Assembly: GCA_038087875.1 (NCBI GenBank)
Contig: CM075991.1
Location: 3,224,001 to 3,288,000, forward strand
Origin: Malacoraja senta
Lineage: Eukaryota
Length of the DNA stretch: 64,000 nt
Direction: 5' to 3'
Shown one piece after another: positions 25,095 to 63,300 of the stretch; the stretch's first letter is position 1, and each line of letters begins with the position of its first letter. The notes beneath the pieces were generated by a model. The model was not told where the DNA came from, did no database searches, and saw only the letters and a program-made list of their open reading frames with translations. The position numbers and the translations under genes are program-made.

Positions 25095-26835
25095 CTGCTA
25101 TATCATCTTTAATAATCAACCAGCATCTTCCCCACTACCGATGTAAGGCTAACTGGTCTATAATTACCCATTTTCTCTCTTAAAAAGTGGAGTTACATTG
25201 GCTTCCCTCCAGTCCACAGGAACTGATCTAGAGTCGAGAGAACATTGGAAAATGATCACCAATGCATCCACGATTTCTTGGGCCACCTCCCTGAGTACTC
25301 TGGGATGCAGACCATCAGACACTGGGGATTTATCTCCCATCAGTCCCAACATTTTACCTAACACCATTTTCTGACTAATGTGGTTTCCCTTCAGTTCCTC
25401 CCTCCCAGTAAATCCTCGGTCCCCTAGTATTTCCAGGAGATTGTTTGTGTCTTCCTCAATGAAGACAGAACCAAAGTACTCGTTTAACTGTCCTGCCATT
25501 TCCTAGTTTCCCATTCTGCATTCACCTGTCTCTGACTGTAAGGGAGCTACATTTGTCTTCACTAATCTTTTCCTTTTTACATACCCAAAGAAACATTTAC
25601 AGTCAATTTGTATATTCCCTGCAAACTTTCTTTCATGCTCTTTAACCCCCCTCTTAAATAACCCCTTGGTCCTCCTGTTGAGTTCTAAATTTCTCCCTGT
25701 CCTCTGGTTTGTAGCTTCTTCTGGCCAATTTATATGCTTCTTACTTGGATCTAACTCTATCCTTGACTTCCCTCATTACCTACGGTTGAGCCGCCTACCC
25801 AGTTTTATTTTTTCGCCAGACAGGGATGAACAATTTCTGGAGTTCATCCATGCAGTCTTTAAATTGTTGCCATTGCATCTCTGCTGTCAACCCTTTAAGT
25901 ATAATTTGCCAGTCCATTCCTAGCCAATTCCCATCTAATATCTTTAAAGTTTCCTTTATGCAAGTTCAGGACCCTTGTCTCATAATTAACCGTGTCATTC
26001 TCCATCCTGATGTAGAATTCCACCGTATTATGGTCACTGCTGCCCAAGGGGCCTTGCACAACAAGATCGCCAACTAATCCTTCCTCATTACACAATACCC
26101 AGTCTAGGATGGCTTGCCCTCTGGTCGGTTCCTCTACATATTGGTTTAAAAACCCATCCCGTATACATTCCAGGAAATCCTCCTCCTCAGCACTGTTACC
26201 AATTTGGTTGGCCCAATCTATATTTAGATTAAAGTCACCCATGATATCCGCTGTACCTTTGCTACACGCATCCCTAATTTCCTGCTTGATGCTGTCCCCA
26301 ACCTCTCTACTGCTGTTTGCTGGTCTCTATACAACTCCAACAAGAATTTTCTGCCCTTGGCTATTTTGCAGATCTACCCATATCGATTCTACAGCATCCA
26401 AGCTAATGTCTCTCCTTGCTATTGCATTAATCTCCTCTTTAACCAGCAATGCCACCCCACTTCCTCTTCGTTTCTGTCTATCCTTCCTGAATATGGACCA
26501 CCCCTGCATGTTTAGCTCCCAGCCTTGGTCACCCTGGAGCCATGTCTCCGTAATTCCAACTATATCATATCCCTTAACTACTAACTGGGCATTCAATTCA
26601 TCCACGTTTTTACAAATGCTCATCGCATTAAGACACAAAGTTTTCAGGTTAGTTTTTCTTATCTCCCTTCTAACTTTTGCTTCTGTCCTCATTTTATGGC
26701 CCACTGTCTGCTTGCATTGGGCCCCATCCCCCTGCCCTGTTAGTTTAAATGTGACCTTTCCAACACTCTCTTTCCCGTGAGCTGCACGGATACGCTTCCA
26801 CGTTGCTGACTCCACCCCCCCATTTTTAGTTAAAA
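25095..26835 (-). mobile_element. Decayed CR1 ORF2 5' half
   Basis: LCLNA, GITETW, MGDFN, SDHN and LHPRVLRE motifs. Confidence 0.92.
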
Positions 26836-27006
26836 CCCACCCGTTTCCACACTGCACCTCTCAACTAAACTAAACTAAACTTAGGGCGACACGGTGGTGC
26901 GGCAGTAGAGTTGCTGCCTTACAGCGCCAGAGACCCGGGTTTGGTTTTGGTGTGTCGAAGGGCCTGCATCCACACTGTATCTCGAACCAATACTAAACTA
27001 AACTAA
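26835..27006 (+). mobile_element. Deleted HE1-like SINE pieces (duplicate at ~41585-41750)
   Basis: GGTGCGGCAGTAGAGTTGCTGCCTTACAGCGCCAGAGACCCGGGTT head and (CTAAA)n tails. Confidence 0.7.
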
Positions 27007-27041
27007 CACCAATCGGCTGGGGATGTTTGAGATTCAGAAGG

Positions 27042-27461
27042 TGTCACACTGCCTGCTAATTCCTCTGCTGACCACTTGAGGGCGGCATAATCTGTGTTCT
27101 CTTTTGTGTTTATCCTGTTTTAGGTATTGTCACCTGTGTGTCATTATTTGTGTTACTGTCTGAGTTCCCTTTTTAAGTTCTGATGTTTGTCTCTGTTGGT
27201 GCTTTGTCTTGAATTTTTGCTGGCTGTTTCTTGTTCTCTTGTTCACCTTTACTTGTGGTTTTGACCTTTGGTCTGATCTCTCGAATTTGATTCTTCTTGC
27301 TGCAAATTTTTGGATTTTGACCCTGTGGTCTGCTTACGACCACTATTCCAGTAAAATCCCTTCTGTGTTTTAACTTGTTCCTGGCTCCTGTGTGCCCTCT
27401 GTGCTTGGGTCTACTCTGCTTTCATACCTGTTCCGGCAAGACAGGGATGGGAACAATGACA
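27042..27461 (+). mobile_element. Solo LTR (Gypsy-type)
   Basis: TGTCA...TGACA termini, 5-bp TSD GAAGG/GAAGA, T-rich body, AGTAAA signal. Confidence 0.75.
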
Positions 27462-27546
27462 GAAGAGTTTATTTTCAAATCTTACCCCCTCCCATCAAAC
27501 TCTTTACAGCCTGATAGATAAAAAAATACATCTATTGATGCTCCTG

Positions 27547-27611
27547 AACACATCATCAGTGATGTAACATGGGCTCATTGGGTGTTTCGGGTCTTTCAAC
27601 ATCAGATACCC
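27547..27611 (-). ncRNA. Candidate non-canonically permuted hammerhead ribozyme in the Hero 3' UTR (copy 1)
   Basis: GGGUAUC-UGAUGU-ugaaa-GACCC-GAAACACCC-14nt-ACAUCA-CUGAUGA-U-GUGUU. Confidence 0.45.
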
Positions 27612-29140
27612 TCACCCAGGTGACCCAGCCGTGGTTGCTCAGACCACGACTTGTGTTCAGGTGGCATTCGCTCCACCTCATGGACCTCCTCTCCTGATCC
27701 AGAGCCATCTCGAGGCCTTCTCTGCTGCCTTTGTGGTGTTCTTGATGGCTCTTCTCCTCTCCATTCCATTGATGCCCAGTGCACTCAAGGCTTTGTAGAG
27801 CGATTGCCCTGCAAAACCTCTGCAGCCAACCTCAATGGGCATACACCTTGCCTTCCAGCCTTGCTTATGGCAGTCTATGACCAGCTCTTCGTACTTGGTC
27901 ATCTTCCTCTCGTGGGCCTCCTCCAGACGGTCCTCCCACGGCACTGTCAGTTCGAACAAGACAATGTTTTTGTTCGCCTCTGAGACCAGGTGGATGTCTG
28001 GCCTCAGGGTGGTTGTGGCAATATGCTGTGCGAACTTCAGCTGTTTCACCAGGTCTACAGAAAGCTGCCAGTCCTGCACAGTCGCCAGGATGCCTGACAG
28101 ATTCCTGACGACTGTGGTTCTTGCCAGCTGCACTCCGGCCTTCACGAACGTGATCATCTGGGTGTTGGGGCGTGCTCGTCTGCAGCTGCTGATTCCCACG
28201 CTGATGACTTCTGCAATGGGGTTAAGAACCTGGTCGTGACGCCAGGTGTACCAGCCCTGCCCAAGAGCCTTTGGGCAGCAGCTCAGGATGTGTTCCAACG
28301 TTCTGTTGACTGGGCATTGCGGGCAATCCGGAGATTCCGCTTTGCCCCAGATGAAGAGGTTCGATGGGTTGGGCAAGATATCGTACACTGCCTGGACCAA
28401 GAACTTGATGCACTGTGGTTCAGCCTGCCAGAGCTCAGTCCATGTGACTTTTTGGTCCATGGCCTGCTCCCACCTTGTCCAGGCTCCCGGCTGCCTCTAG
28501 CCAACCACTCTGCCAGACCTCTCCTCCTTCACTGCTGCCCTCACTTCGACCTGGACCAGCCTGCGGCTCTCCTACCCTTTGGCCTTGTCAAACTGGGGAG
28601 TTGGGAAGATTCCCACACCAGCTCTTCCCCGAGTCACTGCTCCCACCAGGACTCCATGGCGTATCCGAGACTCTCCTTCCAGCACGGCTTCGCCGGCTCT
28701 CCGCTTCCTCCCAGTTTTCACCTCCACCACTGCCTGAGCCACCTTGGGATCGCTGGAGTCCCTGTACAGCATCACCACTCTGGCCCGAGTCACCTTAAAC
28801 TCCTCCCCCAGGGACTTCAGGGGCCGCTGGAGCTTGGTATTATTTCCATAAAGGGCGATGCTGCTAAGGCTCCTGGGCAGTTCCAGCCACCTCCTGAAAA
28901 AGCTGCTGACTTTCCTCTCCAATCTCTCTTTGATGGATATTGGGTCTTCTTAAACAAGCGGTGGCCAGAGTATCCTTGGCAAGATACCATGCTGGTAAAT
29001 CCATGCCTTGAACTTGCCGGGAAGCCCCGGCCGGTCCACCGCTCTCAACCAGCTCTCCAACTCCTGACAGGTTGCATGGACTGATGCTGTATCCTTCAGG
29101 CTGCTGTTAAACACCTTGCCAAGACTCTTCACTGGCTTTT

Positions 29141-29480
29141 CAGAGGCCCAAGAGCCGTTGGAGAGATCGCAGAGGGAGGAGCTACACCCGAGCGGTAGGA
29201 CTTAAAAAGGAGCGCGGGGTTTGTTCCTTACAGAGGCCCAAGAGCCGTTGGAGAGATCGCAGAGGGAGGAGCTACACCCGAGCGGTAGGACTTAAAAAGG
29301 AGCGCGGGGTTTGTTCCTTACAGAGGCCCAAGAGCCGTTGGAGAGATCGCAGAGGGAGGAGCTACACCCGAGCGGTAGGACTTAAAAAGGAGCGCGGGGT
29401 TTGTTCCTTACAGAGGCCCAAGAGCCGTTGGGGAGGTCGCAGAGGGAGGAGCTACACCCGAGTGGTAGGAGTTAAAAAGG
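29141..29480 (+). repeat. 90-bp tandem monomer (~3.8 copies) forming the CR1 5' UTR
   Basis: Units start at 29141, 29231, 29321 and 29411; the first three are identical. Confidence 0.97.
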
Positions 29481-29648: not shown

Positions 29649-30584
29649 ATGAGGGCCAGGGCAGTTTACTGTTCTGGATGTCAGATGTGGGAAGTCATGG
29701 AGTCTGATAGCCCTCCAGACGTCCACATCTGCGCCAGGTGTATCGAGATGGGGCTCCTAATGGACCGTATTAGGAACCTGGAGCAGCAGATTGATGACCT
29801 ACGTCTGGTCAGGGAGAGCGAGGAAGTCATTGAGAGGAGTTACAGGGATGTGGTCACTCCAACACCACAGGAGGCAGGCAAGTGGATCACGGTTGGGAGA
29901 GGCAAGGGGCACAGGCAGGGACTAGAGAGTACCCCGGTGGCTGTACACCTTGACAATAAGTACTCCTGTTTGAGCACTGTTGGGGTGGACAGCCTACCTG
30001 GGGGTAGCGACAGCGGCCGGGCCTCCGGTATAGAGACCGGTCCTGTTGCTCAGAAGGGTAAGGAAAAGAAGAGGAGGGCAATATTAATAGGGGACTCTAT
30101 AGTTAGGGGGTCAGACAGGCGATTCTGTGGACGCAGTCGGGAGACCCGGATGGTAGTTTGCCTCCCTGGTGCCAGGGTCTGTGATGTGTCTCAACGTGTC
30201 CAAGACATCCTGAAAGGGCAGGGAGAGGAGCCCGAGGTCGTGATACATATAGGTACCAATGACATAGGTAAAAAAAGAGAAGAGGTCCTGAAAGGAGAAT
30301 TTAGGGAGTTAGGAGGGGAGTTAAAGAGAAGGACAGCAAAGGTAACAATCTCGGGATTACTGCCTGTGCCACGCGACAGTGAGAGTAGGAATGGAGCGAG
30401 GTGGAGGATAAATGCGTGGCTGAAGGACTGGTGCAGAAGGCAGGGATTCAAATTTCTGGATCATTGGGACCTCTTTTGTGGAAGGTTCGACCTGTACAAA
30501 AAGGATGGGTTGCAATTGAACCTGAGGGGGACCGATATCCTGGCAGGGAGATCTGCAAAGGCTACTGGGGAGACTTTAAACTAG
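29649..30584 (+). CDS. CR1 ORF1p (zinc finger/coiled coil plus SGNH esterase domain)
   Basis: Intact 311 aa with CSGC..CARC, IGDSIVR, CLPGA, HIGTND and DGLQL. Confidence 0.93.
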   Translation: MRARAVYCSGCQMWEVMESDSPPDVHICARCIEMGLLMDRIRNLEQQIDDLRLVRESEEVIERSYRDVVTPTPQEAGKWITVGRGKGHRQGLESTPVAVHLDNKYSCLSTVGVDSLPGGSDSGRASGIETGPVAQKGKEKKRRAILIGDSIVRGSDRRFCGRSRETRMVVCLPGARVCDVSQRVQDILKGQGEEPEVVIHIGTNDIGKKREEVLKGEFRELGGELKRRTAKVTISGLLPVPRDSESRNGARWRINAWLKDWCRRQGFKFLDHWDLFCGRFDLYKKDGLQLNLRGTDILAGRSAKATGETLN

Positions 30585-33500
30585 AACGGTTGGGGGGAGG
30601 GACTCAAATAGAGAATGCTATTAGACAGTGTGTGAGGCAGGAGGCAGAGAAGGAAAGCACTCAGACCCAACATGTAGGGGGGGAAGAAGAAAACAATAAT
30701 AAACAGAGAATAAGAGGTGGTGGGGTTCTTAAATGGGTGAGCAGAGAAACAGAGGGGTGTAAAATGCGGGCGGAAGCAATAGGTAGCAAGGTGAAAAGTA
30801 AAAGTGGCAGGCAGACAAATACAGGGCAAAAATCAAAAAGAGCCACTTTTCAACATAATTGTATAAGGGGTAAGAGCGTTGTAAAAACAAGCCTGAAGGC
30901 TTTGTGTCTCAATGCAAGGAGCATTCGTAATAAGGTGGATGAGTTGAACGTGCAGATAGCAATTAATGATTATGATATAGTTGGGATCACGGAGACATGG
31001 CTCCAGGGTGACCAAGGCTGGGAGCTGAACATCCAGGGATATTCAATATTCAGGAGGGATAGAGAAAAAGGAAAAGGAGGTGGGGTAGCGTTGCTGGTTA
31101 GAGAGGAGATTAACGCAGTGGAAAGGAAGGACATTAGCTTGGAGGATGTGGAATCGGTATGGGTAGAGCTGCGAAACACTAAGGGGCAGAAAACGTTGGT
31201 GGGTGTTGTGTACAGGCCAGCTAGCAGTAGTAGTGAAGTTGGGGATGGCATCAAACAGGAAATTAGAAATGCGTGCAACAAAGGCAAAACAGTTATAATG
31301 GGTGACTTCAATCTACATATAGATTGGGTGAATCAAATTGGCAGGGGTGCTGAGGAAGAGGATTTCTTGGAATGTAAGAGGGATAGTTATCTAAACCAAC
31401 ATGTAGAGGAACCAACGAGAGAGCAGGCTATTCTAGACTGGGTATTGAGTAATGAGGAAGGGTTAGTTAGCAGACTTGTTGTGCGTGCCCCCTTGGGCAA
31501 GAGTGACCATAATATGGTTGAGTTCTTCATTAGGATGGAGAGTGACATTGTTAATTCAGAAACAAAGGTTCTGAACTTAAAGAAAGGTAATTTTGAGGGT
31601 ATGAGACGTGAATTGCCCAAGATTGACTGGCAATTAGTTCTAAAAGGGTTGACGGTGGATATGCAATGGAAGGCATTTAAAGACTGCATGGATGAACTAC
31701 AAAAATTGTTCATCCCAGTTTGGCAAAAGAATAAATCAGGGAAGGTAGTGCATCCGTGGATAACAAGGGAAATCAGGGATAGTATCAAAGCAAAAGATGA
31801 TGCGTACAAATTAGCCAGAAAAAGCAGCATACCAGAGGACTGGGAGAAATTCAGAGACCAGCAGAGGAGGACAAAGGGCTCAATTAGGAAAGGGAAAATA
31901 GATTATGAAAGGAAACTGGCAGGGAACATAAAAACTGACTGCAAAAGTTTTTATAGGTATGTGAAGAGAAAGAGATTAGTTAAAACAAATGTAGGTCCCT
32001 TGCAGTCAGAAACAGGTGAATTGATCATGGGGAACAAGGATATGGCGGACCAATTGAATAACTACTTTGGTTCCGTCTTCACTAAGGAAGACATAAATAA
32101 TCTGCCGGAAATAGCAGGGGGCCGCGGGTCAAAGGAGATGGAGGAACTGAGTGAAATCCAGGTTAGTCGGGAAGTGGTGTTGGGTAAATTGAATGGATTA
32201 AAGGCCGATAAATCACCAGGGCCAGATAGGCTGCATCCCAGAGTACTTAACGAAGTAGCTCCAGAAATAGTGGATGCATTAGTGCTAATTTTTCAAAACT
32301 CTTTAGATTCTGGAGTAGTTCCTGAGGATTGGAGGGTAGCAAACGTAACCCCACTTTTTAAGAAGGGAGGGAGAGAGAAAACGGGGAATTACAGACCAGT
32401 TAGTCTAACATCGGTAGTGGGGAAACTGCTAGAGTCAGTTATTAAAGATGGGATAGCAGCACATTTGGAAAGTGGTGAAATCATTGGACAAAGTCAGCAT
32501 GGATTTACGAAAGGTAAATCGTGTCTGACGAATCTTATAGAATTTTTCGAGGATGTAACTAGTAGAGTGGATAGGGGAGAACCAGTGGATGTGTTGTATC
32601 TGGACTTTCAGAAGGCTTTCGACAAGGTACCACATAAGAGATTAGGATACAAACTTAAATCACACGGTATTGGGGGTTCAGTATTGATGTGGATAGAGAA
32701 CTGGCTGGCAAACAGGAAGCAAAGAGTAGGATTAAACGGGTCCTTTTCACAATGGCAGGCAGTGACTAGTGGGGTACCGCAAGGCTCTGTGCTGGGACCC
32801 CAGCTATTTACAATTTATATTAATGATCTGGACGAGGGAATTGAAAGCAACATCTCCAAGTTTGCGGATGACACTAAGCTGGGGGGCAGTGTTAGCTGTG
32901 AGGAGGATGCTAGGAGACTGCAAGTTGACTTGGATAGACTGGGTGAGTGGGCAAATGTTTGGCAGATGCAGTATTATGTGGATAAATGTGAGGTTATCCA
33001 CTTTGGTGGCAAGAACAGGAAGGCAGACTATTATCTAAATGGTGGCCGATTAGGAAATGGGGGAGATGCAGCGAGACCTGGGTGTCATGGTACACCAGTC
33101 ATTGAAAGTAGGCATGCAGGTGCAGCAGGCAGTGAAGAAAGCGAATGGTATGTTGGCCTTCATAGCAAGAGGATTTGAGTATAGGAGCAGGGAGGTTCTA
33201 CTGCAGTTGTACAGGGTCTTGGTGAGACCACACCTGGAGTATTGCGTACAGTTTCGGTCTCCAAATCTGAGGAAGGACATTATAGCCATAGAGGGAGTGC
33301 AGAGAAGGTTGACCAGACTGATTCCTGGGATGTCAGGACTTTCATATGAAGAAAGACTGGATAGACTTGGCTTATACTCGCTAGAATTTAGGAGATTGAG
33401 AGGGGATCTTATAGAAACGTACAAAATTCTGATGGGGTTGGACAGGCTAGATGCAGGAAGATTGTTCCCGATGTTGGGGAAGTCCAGGACAAGGGGTCAC

Positions 33501-38796: not shown

Positions 38797-39819
38797 TCAG
38801 TACCGATCGTTCCAAGGTTGCCTACATTGTGTCACTGCTCACTCGCCTGGGCAACAGCTGTTTGGGAGCAGCATACAGTTTCCTTAGAGCTCAAACATTC
38901 TACAGTTCACTGATGAGATGAGACGAGTGTTCAGTCACCCAGTCAGCAATCGAGAGGCAGCGAACCGATTGCTTCAACTCCGCCAGGTTTCCCACAGTGT
39001 GGTGGAGTATTCCATAAAATTCACACACTTGTTGCTGAGAGCGATTGGAATGCGTTATTCTCCACTTTCCAACGTGGACACGGTCATCAAGACACTTCCC
39101 AAAGGGCTTGGATTTTCTAATGTTTCTGGCCATCTATGGAGTTAATTGCATGCGTGAGTGAGTTATAGAGAGAGAGAAAAAAGTTATGAATTTCCACTTC
39201 GTTTCTGTCTGAATACATGTGCACGGTGCAGCAGCTGGTGAAGGACTGGCTGGTGCATCTTGTGAAAGATGACTGCAACTCGGCCAGGATTTGCTCCCTC
39301 ATTCTCGCTCGCCTTCCCTGTGTCAATCCGACAGGGGCTGAAGCTGGAAGATCAGCGATCCCGTGCAACGTTTTTATATCCATGAAGCTGGTGGGAAACC
39401 CTTGCCATCCTCCCATTGCAATAGCACAGGTCATTCAGAAACCAGGACCACCTATTGTAATTTTGTTACATGAGGGTAAATTAAATGTAACTTGCTTGCA
39501 ACAGGAGTGTCAGTATTAAAAACAGGAGGAAACCAGGGAGAAGGTAGGACTGCTCAAGGATCAAGAAGGGCATTTGTGCTTGGAGTCTGGAGATGTTCGA
39601 GAGGTACTAAATTAGTACTTTGTATTTGTTTTCGTCAAGGAGAATGAAATGGAGGACAGTGAAATAATTGTGGAGAACGCACTTTGTGGCTGCATACTGG
39701 CGCAGCGCCAGAGGCCCGGATTAGATCCTGACCACGAGTCTGCCTGTACGAAGTATGTATGTTCTCCTTGTGACCACATGGGTGTTCTCTGGATGCTCCA
39801 GTTCCCTCCCACATTTTAA

Positions 39820-41585
39820 ATGCGCTGCTATATCATCTTTAATAATCAACCAGCATCTTCCCCACTACCGATGTAAGGCTAACTGGTCTATAATTACCCA
39901 TTTTCTCTCTTAAAAAGTGGAGTTTCATTGGCTTTCCTCCAGTCCACAGGAACTGATCTAGAGTCGAGAGAACATTGGAAAATGATCACCTATGCATCCA
40001 CGATTTCTAGGGCCACCTCCCTGAGTACTCTTGGATGCAGACCATCAGGCACTGTGTATTTATCTCCCATCAGTCCCAACATTTTACCTAACACCATTTT
40101 CTGACTAATGTGGTTTCCCTTCAGTTCCTCCCTCCCAGTAGATCCTCGGTCCCCTAGTATTTCCAGGAGATTGTTTGTGTCTTCCTCAATGAAGACAGAA
40201 CCAAAGTACTCGTTTAACTTTCCTGCCATTTCCTAGTTTCCCATTCTACATTCACCTGTCTCTGACTGTAAGGGAGCTACATTTGTCTTCACTAATCTTT
40301 TCCTTTTTACATACCCATAGAAACATTTACAGTCAATTTTTATATTCCCTGCAAACTTTCTTTCATGCTCTTTAACCCCCCTCTTAAATAACCCCTTGGT
40401 CCTCCTGTTGAGTTCTAAATTTCTCCCTGTCCTCTGGTTTGTCGCTTCTTCTGGCCAATTTATATGCTTCTTCCTTGGATCTAACTCTATCCTTGACTTC
40501 CCTCATTACCTACGGTTGAGCCGCCTACCCAGTTTTATTTTTTCGCCGGACAGGGATGAACAATTTCTGGAGTTCATCCATGCGGTCTTTAAATTTTTGC
40601 CATTGCATCTCTGCTGTCAACCCTTTAAGTATAATTTGCCAGTCCATTCCTAGACAATTCCCATCTAATATCTTCAAAGTTTCCTTTATTCAAGTTCAGG
40701 ACCCTTGTCTCATAATTAACCGTGTCATTCTCCATCCTGATGCAGAATTCCACCGTATTATGGTCACTGCTGCCCAAGGGGCCTTGCACAACAAGATCGC
40801 CAACTAATCCTTCCTCATTACACAATACCCAGTCTAGGTTGGCCTGCCCTCTGGTCGGTTCCTCTACATATTGGTTTGAAAACCCATCCCGTATACATTC
40901 CAGGAAATTCTCCTCCTCAGCACTGTTACCAATTTGGTTGGCCCAATCTATATTTAGATTAAAGTCACCCATGATATCCCTTTTACCTTTGCTACACACA
41001 TCCCTAATTTCCTGCTTGATGCTGTCCCCAACCTCTCTACTGCTGTTTCCTGGTCTGCATACAACTCCTACAAGAATTTTCTGCCCTTGGCTTTTTCGCA
41101 GATCTACCCATATCGATTCTACAGCATCCAAGCTAATGTCTCTCCTTGCTATTGCATTAATCTCCTCTTTAACCAGCTATGCCACCTCATCTCCTCTTGG
41201 TTTCTGTCTATCCTTCCTGAATATCGACCACCCCTGCATGTTTAGTTCCCAGCCTTGGTCACCCTGGAGCCATGTCTCCGTAATTCCAACTATATTATAT
41301 CCCTTAACTACTAACTGGGCATTCAATTCATCCACCTTTTTTCACATGCTCCTCGCATTAAGACACAACGTTTTCAGGTTAGTTTTTCTTATCTCCCTTC
41401 TAACTTTTGCTTCTGTCCTCATTTTATGGCCCACTGTCTGCTTGCATTGGGTCCCATCCCCCTGCCCTGTTAGTTTAAATGTGACCTTTCCAACACTCTC
41501 TTTCCCGTTAGCTGCACGGATACGCTTCCACGTTGTTGACTCCACCCCCCCCCCCCTCCCCCACACTTTTTAGTTTAAACCCACC
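39820..41585 (-). mobile_element. Decayed CR1 ORF2 5' half (duplicate of 25095-26835)
   Basis: Same junctions and APE motifs as the first copy. Confidence 0.92.
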
Positions 41586-41785
41586 CGTTTCCACACTGCA
41601 CCTCTCAACTAAACTAAACTAAACTTAGGGCGACACGGTGGTGCAGCAGTAGAGTTGCTGCCTTACAGCGCCAGAGACCCGGGTTTGGTTTCGGTGTGTC
41701 GAAGGGCCTGCATCCACACTGTATCTCGAACCAATACTAAACTAAACTAACACCAATCGGCTGGGGATGTTTGAGATTCAGAAGG

Positions 41786-42205
41786 TGTCACACTGCCTGC
41801 TAATTCCTCTGCTGACCACTTGAGGGCGGCATAATCTGTGTTCTCTTTTGTGTTTATCCTGTTTTAGGTATTTTCACCTGTGTGTCATTATTTGTGTTAC
41901 TGTCTGAGTTCCCTTTTTAAGTTCTGATGTTTGTCTCTGTTGGTGCTTTGTCTTGAAATTTTGCTGGCTGTTTCTTGTTCTCTTGTTCACCTTTACTTGT
42001 GGTTTTGACCTTTGGTCTGATCTCTCGAATTTGATTCCTCTTGCTGCAAATGTTTGGATTTTGACCCTGTGGTCTGCTTACGACCACTATTCCAGTAAAA
42101 TCCCTTCTGTGTTTTAATTTGTTCCTGGCTCCTGTGTGCCCTCTGTGCTTGGGTCTACTCTGCTTTCATACCTGTTCCGGCAAGACAGGGATGGGAACAA
42201 TGACA
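41786..42205 (+). mobile_element. Solo LTR (duplicate of 27042-27461)
   Basis: TGTCA..TGACA termini with the same flanks. Confidence 0.75.
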
Positions 42206-42259
42206 GAAGAGTTTATTTTCAAATCTTACCCCCTCCCATCAAACTCTTTACAGCCTGAT

Positions 42260-44080
42260 AGATAAAAAATACATCTATTGATGCTCCTGAACACATCATC
42301 AGTTATGTAACACGGGGTCATTGGGTGTTTCGGGTCTTTCAACATCAGACACCCTCACCCAGGTGACCCAGCCGTGGTTGCTCAGACCACGACTTGTGTT
42401 CAGGTAGCATTCGCTCCTCCTCATGGACCTCCTCTCCTGATCCAGAGCCATCTCGAGGCCTTCTCCGCTGCCTCTGTGGTGTTCTTGATGGCTCTTCTCC
42501 TCTCCATTCCGTTGATGCCCAGTGCACTCAAGGCTTTGTAGAGCGATTGCCCTGCAAAACCTCTGCAGCCAACCTCAATGGGCATACACCTTGCCTTCCA
42601 GCCTTGTTTATGGCAGTCTATGACCAGCTCTTCGTACAAGACAATGTTTTTGTTCGCCTCTGAGACCAGGTGGATGTCTGGCCTCAGGGTGGTCGTGGCA
42701 ATGTGCTGTGCGAACTTCAGCTGTTTCACCAGGTCTACAGAAAGCTGCCAGTCCTGCACAGTCGCCAGGATGCCTGACAGATTCCTGACGGCTGTGGTTC
42801 TTGGCAGCTGCACTCCGGCCTTCACGAACGTGATCATCTGGGTGGTGGGGCGTGCTCGTCTGCAGCTGCTGATTCCCACGCTGATGACCTCTGCAATGGG
42901 TTTAAGAACCTGGTCGTGTCGCCAGGTGTACCAGCCCTGCCCAAGAGCCTTTGGGCAGCAGCTCAGGATGTTCCAATGTTCTGTTGACTGGGCATTGCGG
43001 GCAATCCGGAGATTCCGCTTTGCCCCAGATGAAGAGGTTCGATGGGTTGGGCAAGACATCGTACACTGCCTGGACCAAGAACTTGATGCACTGTGGTTCA
43101 GCCTGCCAGAGCTCAGTCCATGTGACTTTTCGGTCCATGGCCTGCTCCCACCTTGTCCAGGCTCCCTGCTGCCTCTAGCCAACCACTCTGCTAGACCTCT
43201 CCTCCTTCACCTCTGCCCTCACTTCCTCCTGGACCAGCCTGCGGCTCTCCTACCCCTTGGCCTTGTCAAACTGGGGAGTTGGGAAGATTCCCACACCAGC
43301 TCTTCCCCGAGTCACTGCTCCCACCAGGACTCTGTAGCGTATCCGAGACTCTCCTTCCAGCACGGCTTCGCCGGCTCTCCGCTTCCTCCCAGTTTTCACA
43401 TCCACCCGTGCCTGAGCCACCTTGGGATCGCTGGAGTCCCTGTACAGCATCACCACTCTGGCCCGAGTCACCTTAAACTCCTCCTCCAGGGACTTCAGGG
43501 GCAGCTGGAGCTTGGTGTTATTTCCGTAAAGGGCGATGCTGCTAAGGCTCCTGGGCAGTCCCAGCCACCTCCTGAAAAAGCTGCTGACTTTCCTCTACAA
43601 TCTCTCTACGATGGATATTGGGACTTCGTAAACAAGCAGTGGCCAGAGTATCCTTGGCAAGATACCATGCTGGTAAATCCATGCCTTGAACTTGCCTGGA
43701 AGCCCCGACCGGTCCACCGCTCTCAACCAGCTCTCCAGCTCCTAACAGGTTGCCTGAACTGATGCTGTATCCTTCAGGCTGCTGTTAAACACCTTGCCAA
43801 GACTCTTCACTGGCTTTTCAGAGACAATTAGGATTGGTTCGATGCTGAAGCGGAACCTGTCCATGACTTTGCACTTCTTCAGCACCAGTCACCTTGTTTT
43901 TCCTGGCTTAAACCTCATCCTTGCCCATCCAATCAGTTTCTCCAACCCCTGCAGGATCCACCTGCCTCCTGGCAATGACTCAGTGGTGACAGTCAGGTCG
44001 TCCATGAAGGCTCTGATTGGTGGTTGGCGCATTCCTGACTTGATCCGAGGGCCCAGGCATTCTGGCTCAGTAGACTTGAT
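42260..44080 (-). mobile_element. Hero-like RLE LINE, copy 2; continues at 52151-52204, 53827-53880, 60316-60369 and 63721-64000
   Basis: Same motifs as copy 1. An in-frame deletion at ~42638 removes ELTVPWEDRLEEAHERKMTK from the endonuclease. Confidence 0.9.
42290..42354 (-). ncRNA. Candidate non-canonically permuted hammerhead ribozyme in the Hero 3' UTR (copy 2)
   Basis: GGGUGUC-UGAUGU-ugaaa-GACCC-GAAACACCC-14nt-ACAUAA-CUGAUGA-U-GUGUU. Confidence 0.5.
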
Positions 44081-48633: not shown

Positions 48634-50537
48634 ATTTGCCAGTTGCAGTTATTACTGGAATACTATGATGGATCATGATTGTCTCAAAAGCTTCCAGAGA
48701 TCCTGGTTGAAACACCTTCCATTATGCTACAGACTAATTTTAGTGCTCTAGGTTGGGGGCATACATAAGTATTTCCAGCTGTGGAGGTAGATGGAATGTG
48801 GGGAAAGTACCTTTGATCCAATAACAAGGGATCATTTAATGAGAGTTTTAGGAACAATTTATGGCCTAAAGCTTATTGCTCTAATATGCAAAGTTTGCAT
48901 GTTTAGGTATAGATTGACACTACGGAATAGAAACGTATGTTAATCATTTGAGTGGTATGAAGTCAGAATCTTGTGATAGACTGGCTAATGTGATCTGGAC
49001 CTGGTGTTTTTACAAGAATATTTGGTTTGGCAATCTACCTACCTGGTAGATTCAAAATAATTGCAGACTCATGGTCATGTAAATTCAATGATAATACAGA
49101 ATGGATGTTGGATCGTGACAAATTTAGTAATATTGTTGCATGGTTGGTGACTTGTTTGCATCCAGACTTAACCACCAATTACCTAAATATGTGTCATGGG
49201 AACCTGATCCTGGGGCAGTAGGATGTTTCTCGCTGCATTGGGGTAGAATGTTTTTATATACATTTTCTCCATTTTTGCCTCATTTAGTCAGTATATACAG
49301 AAGATCAAACAGGACTCCGCTTCGGGAGTATTGGTGGTACCAGATTGGACCTACAAAACCATGGTACCCTCTGGTGATAAAAATGATCACAAAGCCTCTT
49401 ATGATTTTCCCAAAACAGAATTAACCTGTTTGTGCACCCTATAACTGATGATTCACATCCTTTACATAATCGTATTGGTTTGTTGATTTGCAGATTCTAA
49501 GGAGTTCCATATATTGGAAGAGGACTATCAGATCGTATTGTGGATATTATTGCAACCTGGAGGGATAGTACCCAGAAGCAGTACATTTCTTACATAAGGA
49601 AATGGGATATGTTTTGCTTAAGGCAGAATATTACATATCACACTACAGACATCTCAGACGTGTTAGAGTTTCTGTCAACTCTTTATTTTTTATTGGCAGT
49701 TAAGCTATAGTGCTATCAATACTGCAAGGAGTGCTTTTTCTGCATAGCTATGGAGGGAATCAGAATAAATTCTTGTAGGGTTACACCCTTTGGTCTGTAG
49801 ATTTAGGAAGGGAATTTTCAATTCTAAGCTTCCTAGGCACAGCTTTACAAAAATCTGGAATATAAGAGATATGTTATGCTTTTTCGTTAATGGACTCCTA
49901 TTGCAGTGCTGTCCTTGGCCTAAATTACCATGAAGGTAGTCATGCTCAGGGCACTGGTTTCAGCACAGAGAGTGAAAACATTGCAGAAACTACGAATAGA
50001 CATGATGGAAATAGCAACAGATACTATTATGTTCTATGTCTATGATTTGCTTAAATAGAGTAGACCTGGAATCACAGGATGTAAGTTGGGGTTTTCAGCA
50101 TATCCTACGGATCCACGTCTATGTGTAGTATCACATTTACAATGTTAGATTGAAGCCACCAGAACCTTAAGAGGTGCAGTATCAGCATTTTATTAGCCAT
50201 AAATAATTGCATAAGAAAGTGTCGGTTCAGACTATTTCAAAATGGCTGAAGCAGGTGTTGCTTGATGCAGGTATTGATACTGACAAATTTAAATCTCAAT
50301 CCATCAACATTGGCGGCCAAGGATTTGGATGTTCCAATAGAACATATCCTCGCGGCCGCAGGACAAAGTGAAAGAATGTTTCACAAGTATTACCATAAGG
50401 AGATTATAGTACCTGTGGTTATTTGGTGGTGCTATTTTGGATTTAGTATTAAGTTTCCTCTTGTGATAAAGGGGTTACTATTGTGGTGATAAATTAACCA
50501 TTAACTGGTTGCATCCATGTTGTGGTTATGCATTGTT

Positions 50538-51726
50538 AGAAACATAGAAACATAGAAAATAGGTGCAGGAGTAGGCCATTCGGCCCTTCGAGCCTGCACC
50601 GCCATTTGATATGATCATGGCTGATCATCCAACTCAGTATCCCATCCCTGCCTTCTCTCCATACCCCATGATCCCTTTAGCCACAAGGGCCACATCTAAC
50701 TCCCTCTTAAATATAGCCAATGAACTTGCCTCAACTACCCTCTGTGGCAGAGAATTCCACAGATTCACCACTCTTTGTGTAAAAAATGATTTCCTCATCT
50801 CGGTCCTAAAAGTCTTCCCTCTTATCCTTAAACTGTGACCCCTAGTTCTGGACTTCCCCAACATCCGGAATAATCTTCCTGCATCTAGCCTGTCCAACCC
50901 CTTAAGAATGTTGTACGTTTTTATAAGATCCCCCCCTTAGTCTTCTGAATTCCAACGTGTACAAGCCGAGTCTATCCAGTCTTTCCTCATATGAAAGTCC
51001 TGCCATCCCAGGAATCAGTCTGGTGAACCTTCTCTGTACTCCCTCTATGGCAAGAATGTCTTTCCTCAGATTAGGAGACTAAAACTGTACGCAATACTCC
51101 AGGTGTGGTCTCACCAAGACCCTGTACAACTGCAGTAGAACCTCCCTGCTCTTATTCTCAAATCCTTTTGCTATGAATGCTAACATACCATTTGCTTTCT
51201 TCACTGCCTGCTGCATGTACATTTTTACTTTCAATGACTGGTGTACCATGACACCCAGGTCTCGTTGCATCTCCCCTTTTCCTAATCGGCCACCATTCAG
51301 ATAATAGTTTTCTTTCCTGTTTTTGCACCAAAGTGGATAACCTCACATTTATCCACATTATACTGCATCTGCCATGCCTTTGCCCACTCACCCAACCTAT
51401 CCACCTTGCAGCCTCCTAGCATCCTCCTCACAGCTAACACTGCCCCCCAGCTTCGTGTCATCCGCAAACTTGGAGATGTTGCATTCAATTCCCTCATTCA
51501 GATCATTAATATATATTGTAAATAGCTGGGGTCCCAGCACTGAGCCTTGCGGTACCCCACTAGTCACTGCCTGCCATTCTGAAAAGGACCCGTTTACTCC
51601 TACTCTTTGCTTCCTGTCTGCCAGCCAGTTCTCTATCCACATCCATACTGAACCCCCAATACCATGTGCTTTAAGTTTGTATGCTAATCTCTTATGTGGG
51701 ACCTTGTCGAAAGCCTTCTGAAAGTC
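50538..51726 (-). mobile_element. 5'-truncated CR1 inside the DIRS A 3' region
   Basis: RT C-terminal half plus tail. Confidence 0.95.
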
Positions 51727-51817
51727 ATTTATTGTTGATTGCTTTACTTATTTAGTCAATCAATGCAGTGAGACGCCTGGATTTGAATCTACGGCGTGAA
51801 AACACAGAGCTTTGAAA

Positions 51818-51930
51818 TCTTCACGTAGTCACTCACGTGACTCTGAAGTAAAATAGTAAGATTAAACGAGAACTTACCAGTTTGAAATTTGATCTGTATT
51901 TTAAGAGGAGTTACATTGAGGGACTACGTG
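51818..51930 (+). repeat. DIRS A internal complementary region (ICR); further copies at ~53494-53606 and split 55169-55203 / 60018-60095
   Basis: Reverse complement of the left terminus joined directly to the reverse complement of the right terminus. Confidence 0.93.
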
Positions 51931-52204
51931 CCCTTCAATCCCACTCTCATAAAGATCGAGCTGGTAGTTCTAGTCTTTACGTATCTTACTATCATACTTC
52001 AGTAATTGTTGTCTGTGATTTCACTCCGCTGCTTTGAAGATTGACGCATGTGAGGCTGGACGGGCTCTTCTTCACGTAGTCCCTCAACGTAACTCCTCAT
52101 AAAATAAAGATCAAACTTCAAACTGGTAAGTTCTCATTTAATCTTACTATGATCATGTTCATCGCCAAGGCATAAAGGATCACAGAGATGGTACAGCCTG
52201 TGTT

Positions 52205-53402
52205 ACATAGATACATAGATACATAGAAAATAGGTGCAGGAGTAGGCCATTCGGCCCTTCGAGCCTGCACCGCCATTCAATATGATCATGGCTGATCATC
52301 CAACTCAGTATCCCGTACCTGCCTTCTCTCCATACCCCCTGATCCCCTTAGCCACAAGGGCCGCATCTAACTCCCTCTTAAATATAGCCAATGAACTGGC
52401 CTCAACTACCCTCTGTGGCAGAGAGTTCCAGAGATTCACCACTTTCTGTGTGAAAAAGTTTTTCCTCATCTCGGTCTTAAAGGATTTCCCCCTTATCCTT
52501 AAGCTGTGACCCCTTGTCCTGGACTTCCCCAAACATCGGGAACAATCTTCCTGCATCTAGCCTGTCCAACCCCATAAGAATTTTGTACGTTTCTATAAGA
52601 TCCCCTCTCAATCTCCTAAATTCTAGCGAGTATAAGCCAAGTCTATCCAGTCTTTCTTCATATGAAAGTCCTGACATCCCAGGAATCAGTCTGGTGAACC
52701 TTCTCTGCACTCCCTCTATGGCTATAATGTCCTTCCTCAGATTTGGAGATCAAAACTGTACGCAATACTCCAGGTGTGGTCTCACCAAGACCCTGTGCAA
52801 CTGCAGTAGAACCTCCCTGCTCCTATACTCAAATCCTCTTACTATGAAGACCAACATACCATTCGCTTTCTTCACTGCCTGCTGCACCTGCATGCCTACT
52901 TTCAATGACTGGTGTACCATGACACCCAGGTCTCGTTGCATCTCCCGTTTTCCTAATCGGCCACCATTCAGATAATAGTTTTCTTTCCTGTTTTTGCACC
53001 AAAGTGGATAACCTCACATTTATCCACATTATACTGCATCTGCCATGCCTTTGCCCACTCACCCAACCTATCCAAGTCACCTTGCAGCCTCCTAGCATCC
53101 TCCTCATAGCTAACACTGCCCCCCAGCTTCGTGTCATCCGCAAACTTGGAGATGTTGCATTCAATTCCTCATTCAGATCATTAATATATATTGTAAATAG
53201 CTGGGGTCCCAGCACTGAGCCTTGCGGTACCCCACTAGTCACTGCCTGCCATTCTGAAAAGGACCCGTTTACTCCTACTCTATGCTTCCTGTCTGCCAGC
53301 CAGTTCTCTATCCACATCCATACTGAACCCCCCAATACCATGTGCTTTAAGTTTGTATGCTAATCTCTTATGTGGGCACTTGTCGAAAGCCTTCTGAAAG
53401 TC
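52205..53402 (-). mobile_element. Chimeric CR1 (recombinant)
   Basis: 3' part matches the 60370 copy; 5' part matches the 50538 copy. Confidence 0.9.
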
Positions 53403-53880
53403 ATTTATTGTTGATTGCTTTACTTATTTAGTCAATCAATGCAGTGAGACGCCTGGATTTGAATCTACAGCGTGAAAACACAGAGCTTTGAAATCTTCAC
53501 GTAGTCACTCACGTGACTCCGAAGTAAAATAGTAAGATTAAACGAGAACTTACCAGTTTGAAGCTTGATCTTTATTTTAAGAGGAGTTACATTGAGGGAC
53601 TACGTGCCCTCCAATCCCACCCTCATAAAGATCGAGCTGGTAGTTCTAGTCTTTACGTATCTTACTATCATACTTCAGTAATTGTTGTCTGTGATTTCAC
53701 TCCGCTGCTTTGAAGATTGACGCGTGTGCGGCAGGACGGGCTCTCCTCCACGTAGTCCCTCAACGTAACTCCTCATAAAATAAAGATCAAACTTCAAACT
53801 GGTAAGTTCTCGTTTAATCTTACTATGATCATGTTCATCGCCAAGGCATAAAGGATCACAGAGATGGTACAGCCTGTGTT

Positions 53881-55077
53881 ACATAGATACATAGATACAT
53901 AGAAAATAGGTGCAGGAGTAGGCCATTCGGCCCTTCGAGCCTGCACCGCCATTCAATATGATCATGGCTGATCATCCAACTCAGTATCCCGTACCTGCCT
54001 TCTCTCCATACCCCCTGATCCCCTTAGCCACAAGGGCCGCATCTAACTCCCTCTTAAATATAGCCAATGAACTGGCCTCAACTACCCTCTGTGGCAGAGA
54101 GTTCCAGAGATTCACAACTCTCTGTGTGAAAAAGTTTTTCCTCATCTCGGTCTTAAAGGATTTCCCCCTTATCCTTAAGCTGTGACCCCTTGTCCTGGAC
54201 TTCCCCAACATCGGGAACAATCTTCCTGCATCTAGCCTGTCCAACCCCATAAGAATTTTGTACGTTTCTATCAGATCCCCTCTCAATCTCCTAAATTCTA
54301 GCGAGTATAAGCCAAGTCTATCCAGTCTTTCTTCATATGAAAGTCCTGACATCCCAGGAATCAGTCTGGTGAACCTTCTCTGCACTCCCTCTATGGCTAT
54401 AATGTCCTTCCTCAGATTTGGAGACCAAAACTGTACGCAATACTCCAGGTGTGGTCTCACCAAGACCCTGTACAACTGCAGTAGAACCTCTCTGCTCCTA
54501 TACTCAAATCCTCTTACTATGAAGACCAACATACCATTCGATTTCTTCACTGCCTGCTGCACCTGCATGCCTACTTTCAATGACTGGTGTACCATGACAC
54601 CCAGGTCTCGTTGCATCTCCCCTTTTCCTAATCGGCCACCATTCAGATAATAGTTTTCTTTCCTGTTTTTGCACCAAAGTGGATAACCTCACATTTATCC
54701 ACATTATACTGCATCTGCCATGCCTTTGCCCACTCACCCAACCTATCCAAGTCACCTTGCAGCCTCCTAGCATCCTCCTCACAGCTAACACTGCCCCCCA
54801 GCTTCGTGTCATCCGCAAACTTGGAGATGTTGCATTCAATTCCTTCATTCAGATCATTAATATATATTGTAAATAGCTGGGGTCCCAGCACTGAGCCTTG
54901 CGGTACCCCACTAGTCACTGCCTGCCATTCTGAAAAGGACCCGTTTACTCCTACTCTTTGCTTCCTGTCTGCCAGCCAGTTCTCTATCCACATCCATACT
55001 GAACCCCCAATACCATGTGCTTTAAGTTTGTATGCTAATCTCTTATGTGGAACCTTGTCGAAAGCCTTCTGAAAGTC
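53881..55077 (-). mobile_element. Chimeric CR1 (recombinant, second copy)
   Basis: Same switch pattern as 52205-53402. Confidence 0.9.
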
Positions 55078-55719
55078 ATTTATTGTTGATTGCTTTACTT
55101 ATTTAGTCAATCAATGCAGTGAGACGCCTGGATTTGAATCTACGGCGTGAAAACACAGAGCTTTGAAATCTTCACGTAGTCACTCACGTGACTCCGAAGT
55201 AAAATAGTAAGATTAAACGAGAACTTACCAGTTTGAAGTTTGATCTGTATTTTATGAGGAGTTACGATGAGGGATTACGTGAAGACCCCGTCCAGCACGC
55301 ATGCGCGACATTCTTCAAAGCAGCGGTGTGGAATCACAGGAAACACAATAATTGAAATAAACATAGTAAAGAAAAGGAGAACTAAGATACCTGTTGATCT
55401 ATATATTTGAGGGTGGGAGCGGAGGGCACGTAATCCCTCATCGTAACTCCTCATAAAATACAGATCAAACTTCAAACTGGTAAGTTCTCGTTTAATCTTA
55501 CTATTTTACTTCGGAGTCACGTGAGTGACTACGTGAAGATTTTAAAGCTCTGTGATTTCAAACCGTGTAACAGTTCATACTTCACTCGCTGCCGAAGTCA
55601 TTCAAGGGAGGAAGTATGTTATCGTAATCAACCATAATCTGTTTATAAACAATAATGGTATCTATTAAACAATAACAAAAGACAAAATGCTCCCCTGGGC
55701 TTAAATTATATATTTTTGC

Positions 55720-60369: not shown

Positions 60370-63300
60370 ACATAGATACATAGATACATAGAAAATAGGT
60401 GCAGGAGTAGGCCATTCGGCCCTTCGAGCCTGCACCGCCATTCAATATGATCATGGCTGATCATCCAACTCAGTATCCCGTACCTGCCTTCTCTCCATAC
60501 CCCCTGATCCCCTTAGCCACAAGGGCCGCATCTAACTCCCTCTTAAATATAGCCAATGAACTGGCCTCAACTACCCTCTGTGGCAGAGAGTTCCAGAGAT
60601 TCACCACTCTCTGTGTGAAAAAGTTTTTCCTCATCTCGGTCTTAAAGGATTTCCCCCTTATCCTTAAGCTGTGACCCCTTGTCCTGGACTTCCCCAACAT
60701 CGGGAACAATCTTCCTGCATCTAGCCTGTCCAACCCCATAAGAATTTTGTACGTTTCTATAAGATCCCCTCTCAATCTCCTAAATTCTAGCGAGTATAAG
60801 CCAAGTCTATCCAGTCTTTCTTCATATGAAAGTCCTGACATCCCAGGAATCAGTCTGGTGAACCTTCTCTGCACTCCCTCTATGGCTATAATGTCCTTCC
60901 TCAGATTTGGAGACCAAAACTGTACGCAATACTCCAGGTGTGGTCTCACCAAGACCCTGTACAACTGCAGTAGAACCTCCCTGCTCCTATACTCAAATCC
61001 TCTTATTATGAAGACCAACATACCATTCACTTTCTTCACTGCCTGTTGCACCTGCATGCCTACTTTCAATGACTGGTGTACCATGACACCCAGGTCTCTC
61101 TGCATCTCCCCATTTCCTAATCGGCCACCAGTTAGATAATAGTCTGCCTTCCCGTTTTTGCGACCAAAGTGGATAACCTCACATTTATCCACATTATACT
61201 GCATCTGCCAAACATTTGCCCACTCACCCAGCCTATCCAAGTCACCTTGCAGTCTCCTAGCATCCTCCTCACAGCTAACACTGCCCCCCAGCTTAGTGTC
61301 ATCCGCAAACTTGGAGATGTTGCTTTCAATTCCCTCGTCCAGATCATTAATATAAATTGTAAATAGCTGGGGTCCCAGCACTGAGCCTTGCGGTACCCCA
61401 CTAGTCACTGCCTGCCATTCTGAAAAGGACCCGTTTACTCCTACTCTTTGCTTCCTGTTTGCCAGCCAGTTCTCTATCCACATCAATACTGAACCCCCAA
61501 TACCGTGTGATTTAAGTTTGTATCCTAATCTCTTATGTGGTACCTTGTCGAAAGCCTTCTGAAAGTCCAGATACAACACATCCACTGGTTCTCCCCTATC
61601 CACTCTACTAGTTACACCCTCGAAAAATTCTATAAGATTCGTCAGACACGATTTACATTTCGTAAATCCATGCTGACTTTGTCCAATGATTTCACCACTT
61701 TCCAAATGTGCTGATATCCCATCTTTAATTACTGACTCTAGCAGTTTCCCCACCACCGATGTTAGACTAACTGGTATGTAATTCCCCGTTTTCTCTCTCC
61801 CTCCCTTCTTAAAAAGTGGGGTTACGTTTGCTACCCTCCAATCCTCAGGAACTACTCCAGAATCTAAAGAGTTTTGAAAAATTATCACTAATGCATCTAC
61901 TATTTCTGGAGCTACTTCCTTAAGTACTCTGGGATGCAGCCTATCTGGCCCTGGTGATTTATCGGCCTTTAATCCATTCAATGTCTTCCTTAGTGAAGAC
62001 GGAACCAAAGTAGTTATTCAATTGGTCCGCCATAACCTTGTTCCCCATGATCAATTCACCTGTTTCTGACTGCAAGGGACCTACATTTGTTTTAACTAAT
62101 CTCTTTCTCTTCACATATCTATAAAAACTTTTGCAGTCAGTTTTTATGTTTCCTGCCAGTTTCCTTTCATAATCTATTTTCCCTTTCCTAATTAAGCCCT
62201 TTGTCCCCCTCTGCTGGTCTCTGAATTTCTCCCAGTCCTCTGGTATGCTGCTTTTTCTGGCTAATTTGTACGCATCATCTTTTGCTTTGATACTATCCCT
62301 GATTTCCCTTGTTATCCACGGATGCACTACCTTCCCTGATTTATTCTTTTGCCAAACTGGGATGAACAATTTTTGTAGTTCATCCATGCAGTCTTTAAAT
62401 GCCTTCCATTGCATATCCACCGTCAACCCTTTTAGAACTAATTGCCAGTTAATCTTGGCCAATTCACGTCTCATACCCTCAAAGTTACCTTTCTTTAAGT
62501 TCAGAACCGTTGTTTCTGAATTAACAATGTCACTCTCCATCCTAATGAAGAACTCAACCATATTATGGTCACTCTTGCCCAAGGGGGCACGCACAACAAG
62601 ACTGCTAACTAACCCTTCCTCATTACTCAATACCCAGTCTAGAATAGCCTGCTCTCTCGTTGGTTCCTCTACATGTTGGTTTAGATAACTATCCCACATA
62701 CATTCCAAGAAATCCTCTTCCTCAGCACCCCTGCCAATTTGATTCACCCAATCTATATGTAGATTGAAGTCACCCATTATAACTGTTTTGCCTTTGTTGC
62801 ACGCATTTCTAATTTCCTGTTTGATGCCATCCCCAACTTCAGTACTACTGCTAGGTGGCCTGTACACAACACCCACCAGCGTTTTCTTCCCCTTAGTGTT
62901 TCGCAGCTCTACCCATACCGATTCCACATCCTCCAAGCTAATGTCCTTCCTTTCCACTGCGTTAATCTCCTCTCTAACCAGCAACGCTACCCCACCTCCT
63001 TTTCCTTTCTCTCTATCCATCCTGAATATTGAATATCCCTGGATGTTCAGCTCCCAGCCTTGGTCACCCTGGAGCCATGTCTCCGTGATCCCAACTATAT
63101 CTTAATCATTAATTGCTATCTGCACGTTCAACTCATCCACCTTATTGCGAATGCTCCTTGCATTGAGACACAAAGCCTTCAGGCTTGTTTTTACAACGCT
63201 CTTACCCCTTATACAATTATGTTGAAAAGTGCCTCTTTTTGATTTTTGCCCTGGATTTGTCTGCCTGCCACTTTTACTTTTCACCTTGCTACCTATTGCT

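Follow-up and report, generated by a model that had tools for sequence, protein, structure and literature searches.

The window, that is, the whole 64,000-nt stretch analysed here, carries on its minus strand at 42260..43823 a 5'-truncated and broken copy of a Hero/Zebulon LINE, with a frameshift, an early stop and an internal deletion, and at the 3' end of this copy lies an RNA motif of about 120 nt (42404-42286, minus strand). The frame upstream of the motif encodes the C-terminal part of the RT protein, the C-terminal 271 amino acids of which are 60% identical to Q7T1J8_TETNG and 57% identical to Q76IN2_TAKRU, which we take to be Zebulon and HEROFr. The 120 relatives listed lie at 53-79% identity, the majority of them with PF00078, and Pfam gave no family for two C-terminal Hero fragments. 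The R-x-D..E..K columns, presumably the restriction-like endonuclease motif, are invariant in the Hero proteins, and with a single ORF combining RT and a C-terminal restriction-like endonuclease and a position near the known Hero proteins the element belongs to the Hero clade. At least three Hero families are present in the genome, at about 80, 63 and 43% identity to P0002. Family 3 is young and retains an intact 1181-aa frame; its copies are more than 99% alike and include the multi-unit arrays L073 and L074 (G000:C1:16631600-16636900; C5:8158000-8163300). Two protein scans of viral contigs found no Hero relative. Hero fragments were seen in three bacterial assemblies (L156-L158), where they are most likely host DNA carried into the records.

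A second copy of the motif lies on the minus strand at 27541..27663, with the triplet AUC instead of GUC and five of six pairs in stem III. The segments 24495-29145 and 39225-43823 that contain the two copies are duplicates of 96-97% identity and have about 3 kb of 3' flank in common, and they therefore go back to one insertion rather than to the two insertions assumed in an earlier note on this DNA; both window copies are decayed and originate from a single 5'-truncated insertion that was duplicated. The hammerhead letters which that note had quoted for 42354-42290 of the minus strand are read directly in the window, and, as it had stated, stem III is fully paired in the 42 kb copy and stem I in the 27 kb copy (6/6 each). 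The central 18-nt piece occurs twice in the window (42323-42340 and 27580-27597), for a chance expectation of 0.07. Two of the note's measurements have to be revised: the motif is about 120 nt long and not 65, and it does not begin 66 nt after the stop, since the TGA in question (42423-42421) is TGG in nine of nine copies at other loci (L052-L060), which places the family's stop at 42402-42400, inside the motif and 52 nt before the predicted cut. The fixed 3' end of the element lies approximately at 42256..42265 (minus strand), 88 nt past the cut and devoid of poly(A); copies at other loci enter unrelated flanks at about the same distance, and one of them enters the element's own 5' UTR. Searched with Rfam at gathering scores, the 64-kb window contains no hammerhead family, and only U2 reaches the threshold, with a U2 snRNA-like sequence at 1653-1793 (plus strand; 48 bits, just over the gathering score) that is probably a pseudogene. 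The window further holds several copies of an APE-type LINE with RT and endonuclease domains (30389-33178, plus strand; 60470-62017, minus strand; 50537-55303), three fragments of an APE-type LINE repeat at a spacing of about 1675 nt, and a unit of about 90 nt repeated head to tail at 29140-29300, where the 27-29 kb Hero copy has its 5' junction.

Read 5' to 3' along the minus strand, the motif begins with the 5' strand of helix Y (42395..42404), which contains the family's stop codon and pairs 10/10 with 42295-42286, and continues with hairpin Z of 8 bp (42370..42394), the last base of which stands directly 5' of G10.1. The 5' strand of stem II (42365..42369, GGGUC, with G10.1 at 42369) follows, still 5' of the cut site, and then the 5' strand of a helix P4 (42358..42363), whose position in the wiring is that of the stem I-II helix of the published type SGC. 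An nGA (42355..42357), the non-bulged strand of a kink-turn pattern in which GA stands opposite a 3-nt bulge and GA, leads into the 5' strand of stem III with the GUC triplet (42348..42354), behind which the cut is predicted between 42348 and 42347, and into the 5' strand of the covarying stem I (42342..42347). After a 5-nt linker come the 3' strand of stem II (42332..42336, with C11.1 at 42332), G12-A13-A14-A15.1 with the 3' strand of stem III (42323..42331, found both in the alignment and in the helix-only search), the 3-nt bulge and GA with the 3' strand of P4 (42311..42322), the 3' strand of stem I with the C3-A9 core CUGAUGA (42296..42308) and, directly after A9, the 3' strand of helix Y (42286..42295). 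P4 and stem I each have one mismatch in the window copy. The strand order is Y5' - hairpin Z - II5' - P4 - nGA - III5' - UH(cut) - I5' - linker - II3' - GAAA - III3' - bulge GA - P4' - I3' - CUGANGA - Y3', and seven helices and the hammerhead core letters are contained in this element of about 120 nt.

The hammerhead letters are genuine, and the Hero/Zebulon LINEs sampled have conserved them. Relatives were collected by protein search only, which yielded 79 metagenome and three genome-contig loci from the best 80 of 378 relatives. A descriptor of the core in S-G-C order matches 48 of these 82 loci, or 45 of 65 when only loci that extend 200 nt or more beyond the ORF match are counted, and has no match on the reverse strand, in the upstream 700 nt or in 10 shuffles, so that a hammerhead core in non-circular order at the Hero 3' end, as first proposed, is borne out. 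Twenty sequences, of which 16 belong to the 82 loci, served to build a covariance model that matches 70 of the 82 (again the best 80 of 378 relatives). Eight of the 12 misses end no more than 150 nt from the ORF match, and L078, L120, L132 and L134 are true misses; three of the matches (L114, L115, L158) stand away from the matched ORF and not directly behind it. The carriers have 28-100% protein identity (median 50%) and are scattered over a quick tree, with Q7T1J8_TETNG and Q76IN2_TAKRU among or beside them; the tree, with 137 columns and 32 of 78 inner branches open, indicates spread and not history. One branch (L134, L137, L148) has UUGA where CUGA is expected at the start of the core and is variable thereafter, and may have a decayed or altered core. 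L146, on a long branch, has the motif at 2377-2496, some 450 nt past the ORF match, and its P4 spacing is longer. On viral contigs a loose S-G-C pattern gave 93 matches, and none of the 80 examined has a 4-bp stem I.

Support for the helices comes from 20 sequences, selected with a regular Z length and three of them from family 1, that were aligned with MAFFT without regard to structure; in this alignment 91.2% of the cells in 41 pairs are paired as compared with 64.9% after shuffling, and 32 pairs show double changes. Covariation over these pairs is 0.700, against 0.221 for shuffles, which ignore relatedness, and 0.095-0.130 for slid alignments. Stems I, II (with its upstream strand) and III covary as the three stems of a hammerhead, with 93, 93 and 98% of their cells paired, and the covariation of stems I and III across families, which had been anticipated, is seen in the pairing counts of 28 families as well. 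Double changes occur in ten of ten pairs of helix Y and in seven of eight pairs of hairpin Z in the same 20 sequences. A search for the helices only, in which no core letters were used, finds 52 of 67 loci at the threshold of at least 21/26, none in reverse complements and one in shuffles, and recovers the letters of the hammerhead core in 20-27 of 27 families. N7 varies freely in these families (12/4/5/6), and position 17 holds C, U or A, with G in 0/52 loci; the H17 rule holds in the 52 loci. The predicted cut at 42348/42347 stands. The preference for the hammerhead spacing 1/3/7 in the helix-only scan is slight (22.2, other spacings 20.7-22.1).

The earlier note had formed stem II from GUGUU and GACCC after one extra U, and here the evidence points elsewhere. 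Among 28 families under 80% identity, 26 form at least 4 bp between the strand before GAAA and a strand 5' of the cut site, which lies 19-20 nt (once 23 nt) upstream of U16.1; with the strand after CUGANGA a length of at least 4 bp is reached in two families at offsets 0-2 and in nine at offsets 0-12. With swapped partners the same length is reached by 35% for the upstream and 6% for the downstream strand. Of the 28 families, 28, 27, 27 and 24, respectively, form pairs 2-5 of the upstream stem (p=0.0005 each), with three or four Watson-Crick types per pair, and position 10.1 is G in 27. A downstream stem of the GUGUU/GACCC type is paired in 12-15 of 27-28 families per position (p 0.047-1.0), and on the alignment 60% of its cells are paired with a covariation of 0.257, as compared with 0.239 when slid by one column; it was rejected, its pairing being at chance and no better than the slid control and its strand belonging to helix Y. 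In the window copy GACCC pairs 5/5 with GGGUC (42369-42365) at -7.1, versus +0.3 for GUGUU/GACCC, and what the note had regarded as a competing hairpin actually supplies the true strand of stem II. CUGANGA is hence not joined to stem II by 0-2 nt: the 5' strand of stem II lies upstream of the cut site, and the backbone is open between A9 and G10.1.

The opening is occupied by helix Y and hairpin Z. Helix Y pairs the bases after A9 with a strand at the far 5' end of the motif, and in 27 of 28 families it starts at offset 0 from A9; hairpin Z takes up the stretch as far as G10.1, and in the window copy Y measures 10 bp at -14.8 kcal/mol. The counts for Y and Z leave out L092, L121, L139 and L144, and L098 was dropped after the descriptor search on account of a wrong G block. 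As a permissive swap control for Y is weak (mean 7.3 vs 9.8), this helix rests on the per-position pairing counts and the covariation in the alignment. Each of the six positions of P4 is paired in 24-27 of the 28 families. A short linker between stems I and II, which had also been predicted, measures 0-10 nt in the 28 families (3-6 nt in 20). A kink-turn consists of a 3-nt bulge followed by tandem G-A / A-G pairs between two helices. This sequence pattern, GA opposite a 3-nt bulge and GA, connects stem III with P4 in 23 of 28 families, with U at L3 in 22, and the loop probably folds as a kink-turn that would bring stem III back onto the I-II helix. Closed into a ring, the fold has the S-G-C order, with P4 connecting the 5' strand of stem II to the 3' strand of stem I at their far ends. 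Helix Y would be stacked end to end on Z, which would place the entry of A9 beside the exit of G10.1, and the core would in this way close without a covalent A9-G10.1 link. A nested fold prediction for family 1 forms Y and Z (z = -5.6) and takes GGGUC into a different long hairpin, so that misfolding may limit activity there. We are all but certain that the motif is a deeply conserved fold with a complete hammerhead core and a wiring outside the six described orders, and cleavage after NUH by the predicted ribozyme is very likely.

The S-G-C order itself has been published as type SGC by Eckert et al. 2023 from metatranscriptomes only (PMC10085705), and is therefore not undescribed. No hammerhead in Hero was found in the literature searched. 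Type SGC (HRIMA-1 and variants) was validated in vitro with rates of 0.007-0.19 per min, and the six orders follow from the assumption that CUGAnGA and the neighbouring paired bases are uninterruptible (PMC10085705). The Hero motif shares with type SGC the S-G-C order, the short I-II linker, a helix (P4) that links stems I and II on their far sides, and an insert between A9 and G10.1. In our reading of oligos CEW334, 660 and 671, SGC-1, -2 and -3 have one extra U between A9 and stem II (PMC10085705), and in the hammerheads of Penelope a base at the 5' end of stem II is left unpaired (PMC4209133); the A9/G10.1 position therefore tolerates insertion. In type SGC, however, block C is one piece and the break in the chain falls between stem III and the I-II helix, whereas in the Hero motif the latter side is closed by the kink-turn pattern and the chain is open at A9/G10.1, with Y and Z, which puts it outside the six permutations of Eckert et al. 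Furthermore, type SGC comes from metatranscriptomes, while the Hero motif is genomic and resides in an autonomous LINE clade. The Hero motif would work like an SGC ribozyme without being one by the definition of Eckert et al.

Within the literature searched the term type-SGC occurs only in Eckert et al. 2023, and 'Hero' occurs 0 times in the available text and supplement of that paper (PMC10085705). Neither a Hero hammerhead nor a break at A9/G10.1 was found in this literature, including the available parts of PMC3088659, PMC6155905, PMC7650587, PMC13580325, PMC13725137, PMC4640811, PMC10162972, PMC6765202, PMC11014351 and bioRxiv 2026.07.22.740005; Weinberg 2015, Repbase reports, subscription journals and the closed supplements of bioRxiv 2026.07.22.740005 may bear on the matter, and PMC13725137 mentions hammerheads with additional helices, citing Weinberg 2015. 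For Zebulon and HEROFr (Q7T1J8_TETNG, Q76IN2_TAKRU) no ribozyme was found described in the same literature.

The motif lies within a head-to-tail repeat, and insertions can exceed one unit, as in Penelope-type elements. The element's 3' end recurs at the 5' side of several copies, over 74 nt in L062, about 500 nt in L065, about 50 nt in L066, 21 nt in L068, 38 nt in L075 and more than 520 nt in L073/L074. In a study of 2003 by Bouneau, Zebulon is said to have a partial-tandem structure. The arrays of family 3 show a spacing of 3953-3958 nt at four places, with a cut-to-cut distance of 3954, and eight related loci have unit-period repeats, some of which are perhaps assembly wrap-arounds. In four contig sets compared with family 3, a single 3921-nt contig covers the junction and the cut site; it may be DNA. 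A ligated circle and a genomic tandem are the same in sequence. The distance of the 3' end from the cut differs by family (88 and 206 nt).

The 5' ends of family 1 were taken from 40 junction matches to L065:4481-5180, duplicates and the query included. Twelve of the 40 begin at least 54 nt upstream of the cut, none falls between -53 and +20, 11 lie at +21 to +82 and 17 at +107 to +180. The crowding of ends 20-180 nt behind the predicted cut may mark stalling of the RT at the fold or trimming of a linear end. For family 3, at least 16 of 40 copies picked by their 5' UTR alone, 23 of which were unread, run through the upstream cut site, and one more stands one unit away from such a copy. As copies cross the cut site in both families, the template is often continuous there, although uncut RNA would give the same genomic continuity.

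These observations can be joined in one mechanism. A read-through transcript of a more-than-unit Hero copy would be cut at two ribozymes to give one unit (3954 nt in family 3), the ends of which would be held together by stem I and about 27 bp more (Y, II, P4, III), to be either ligated or crossed by a template jump. Target-primed synthesis by the RT of the element would then start internally, at a fixed position 88-206 nt behind the cut, and proceed up to or past one round. This course would explain the continuity across the cut site, the fixed 3' end and its lack of poly(A), 5' repeats that can have any length, multi-unit arrays included, and the way in which long repeats are renewed. Given the head-to-tail structure, the last 80-90 nt or so would not be lost on cleavage, as these bases would stand at the 5' end of the unit-length RNA just behind the cut. 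We regard it as probable that the motif is a hammerhead of the SGC/GCS/CSG class opened at the new point A9/G10.1 and that it serves unit-length cutting with clamped or ligated ends and an internal RT start; a circular or looped template is slightly favoured. The full combination, a seventh natural hammerhead topology with its core closed by stacked helices and a kink-turn, clade-wide in Hero, and retrotransposition via ribozyme-made RNA circles of about 3.6-4 kb with internal target-primed initiation, is put forward tentatively, at slightly less than even odds.

The ribozyme could also cut without the template becoming a circle, either freeing a linear RNA from a host co-transcript, like the HDV-like ribozymes of R2, or cutting slowly while the downstream copy stays intact, and long repeats would then stem from uncut multimers or template jumps. 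Consistent with this are the 11 of 40 family-1 ends that fall slightly inside the predicted RNA start (+21 to +82), the stretch of 74 nt around and ahead of the cut in which none of the 40 lies, and the slowness of SGC ribozymes. We nevertheless consider it unlikely, for 12 of 40 family-1 matches and at least 16 of 40 family-3 copies cross the upstream cut site, multi-unit arrays exist, and a daughter starting at the cut would be without the upstream half of the ribozyme. Slightly less likely still is a non-catalytic docking structure for the element's RT/endonuclease, hammerhead-descended or hammerhead-like, with tandems arising from read-through and unequal crossing-over. Such a structure would agree with the absence of insertion ends at the cut site, the position near the RT start site and the occupation by Y and Z of the bases expected to follow A9, but the full catalytic letters, a free N7 and no G17 emerge from a search for helices only, the distance to the 3' end varies between families (88 and 206 nt), and the upstream strand completes stem II with G10.1-C11.1, so that the helices complete a ribozyme and do not exclude one. 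Most improbable is an ordinary type-SGC hammerhead in which block C is uninterrupted and a weak downstream stem II follows one extra U: family 1 could form four of five such pairs in the layout of the validated SGC ribozymes, but the stem attains 4 bp in only 2/28 families, its 60% pairing does not surpass the slid control, and its downstream strand is bound in the 10-bp covarying helix Y.

The preferred reading, a cleaving motif with unit-length products and an internal RT start, has parallels in the hammerheads of Penelope-like pseudo-LTRs (PMC4209133, PMC11167929) and in retrozymes (PMC4918200), which share with Hero a ribozyme in a repeated end, partial-tandem insertions, a proposed circle template and an internal RT start. 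For Penelope hammerheads a cut, ligated and circular template was proposed (PMC4209133), and internal RT initiation was demonstrated for a Penelope-like element (PMC11167929). The hammerheads of these elements are of type I or III and often minimal and dimer-dependent, in contrast to the self-contained double-pseudoknot motif of Hero, and Penelope-like elements belong to a different retroelement class with a GIY-YIG endonuclease instead of a restriction-like one. The HDV-like ribozymes of R2, L1Tc and RTE (PMC6765202) likewise are self-cleaving RNAs that process the transcript of a non-LTR retrotransposon, but they are of a different class, lie at the 5' end and define the 5' junction, while the Hero motif is part of the 3' repeat and is traversed by insertions. 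If the preferred reading is true, the assumption of three unbreakable hammerhead blocks with six possible orders falls, a non-circular class previously without a known host is placed in animal genomes at high copy number, and there is a mechanism for how Hero/Zebulon lack a poly(A) tail and insert as partial tandems; it would also suggest that a LINE clade reached the circle strategy of Penelope and retrozymes independently. Ribozyme products clamped by more than 30 bp would be relevant to RNA circularisation and R2-like insertion tools.

A mixed tandem was observed as well: at L111:3-1317 and 3733-5039, two Hero units that are no more than 70% alike follow each other in head-to-tail orientation with the spacing of one unit and a motif in each, possibly as a result of a template jump or of insertion into a relative's end.
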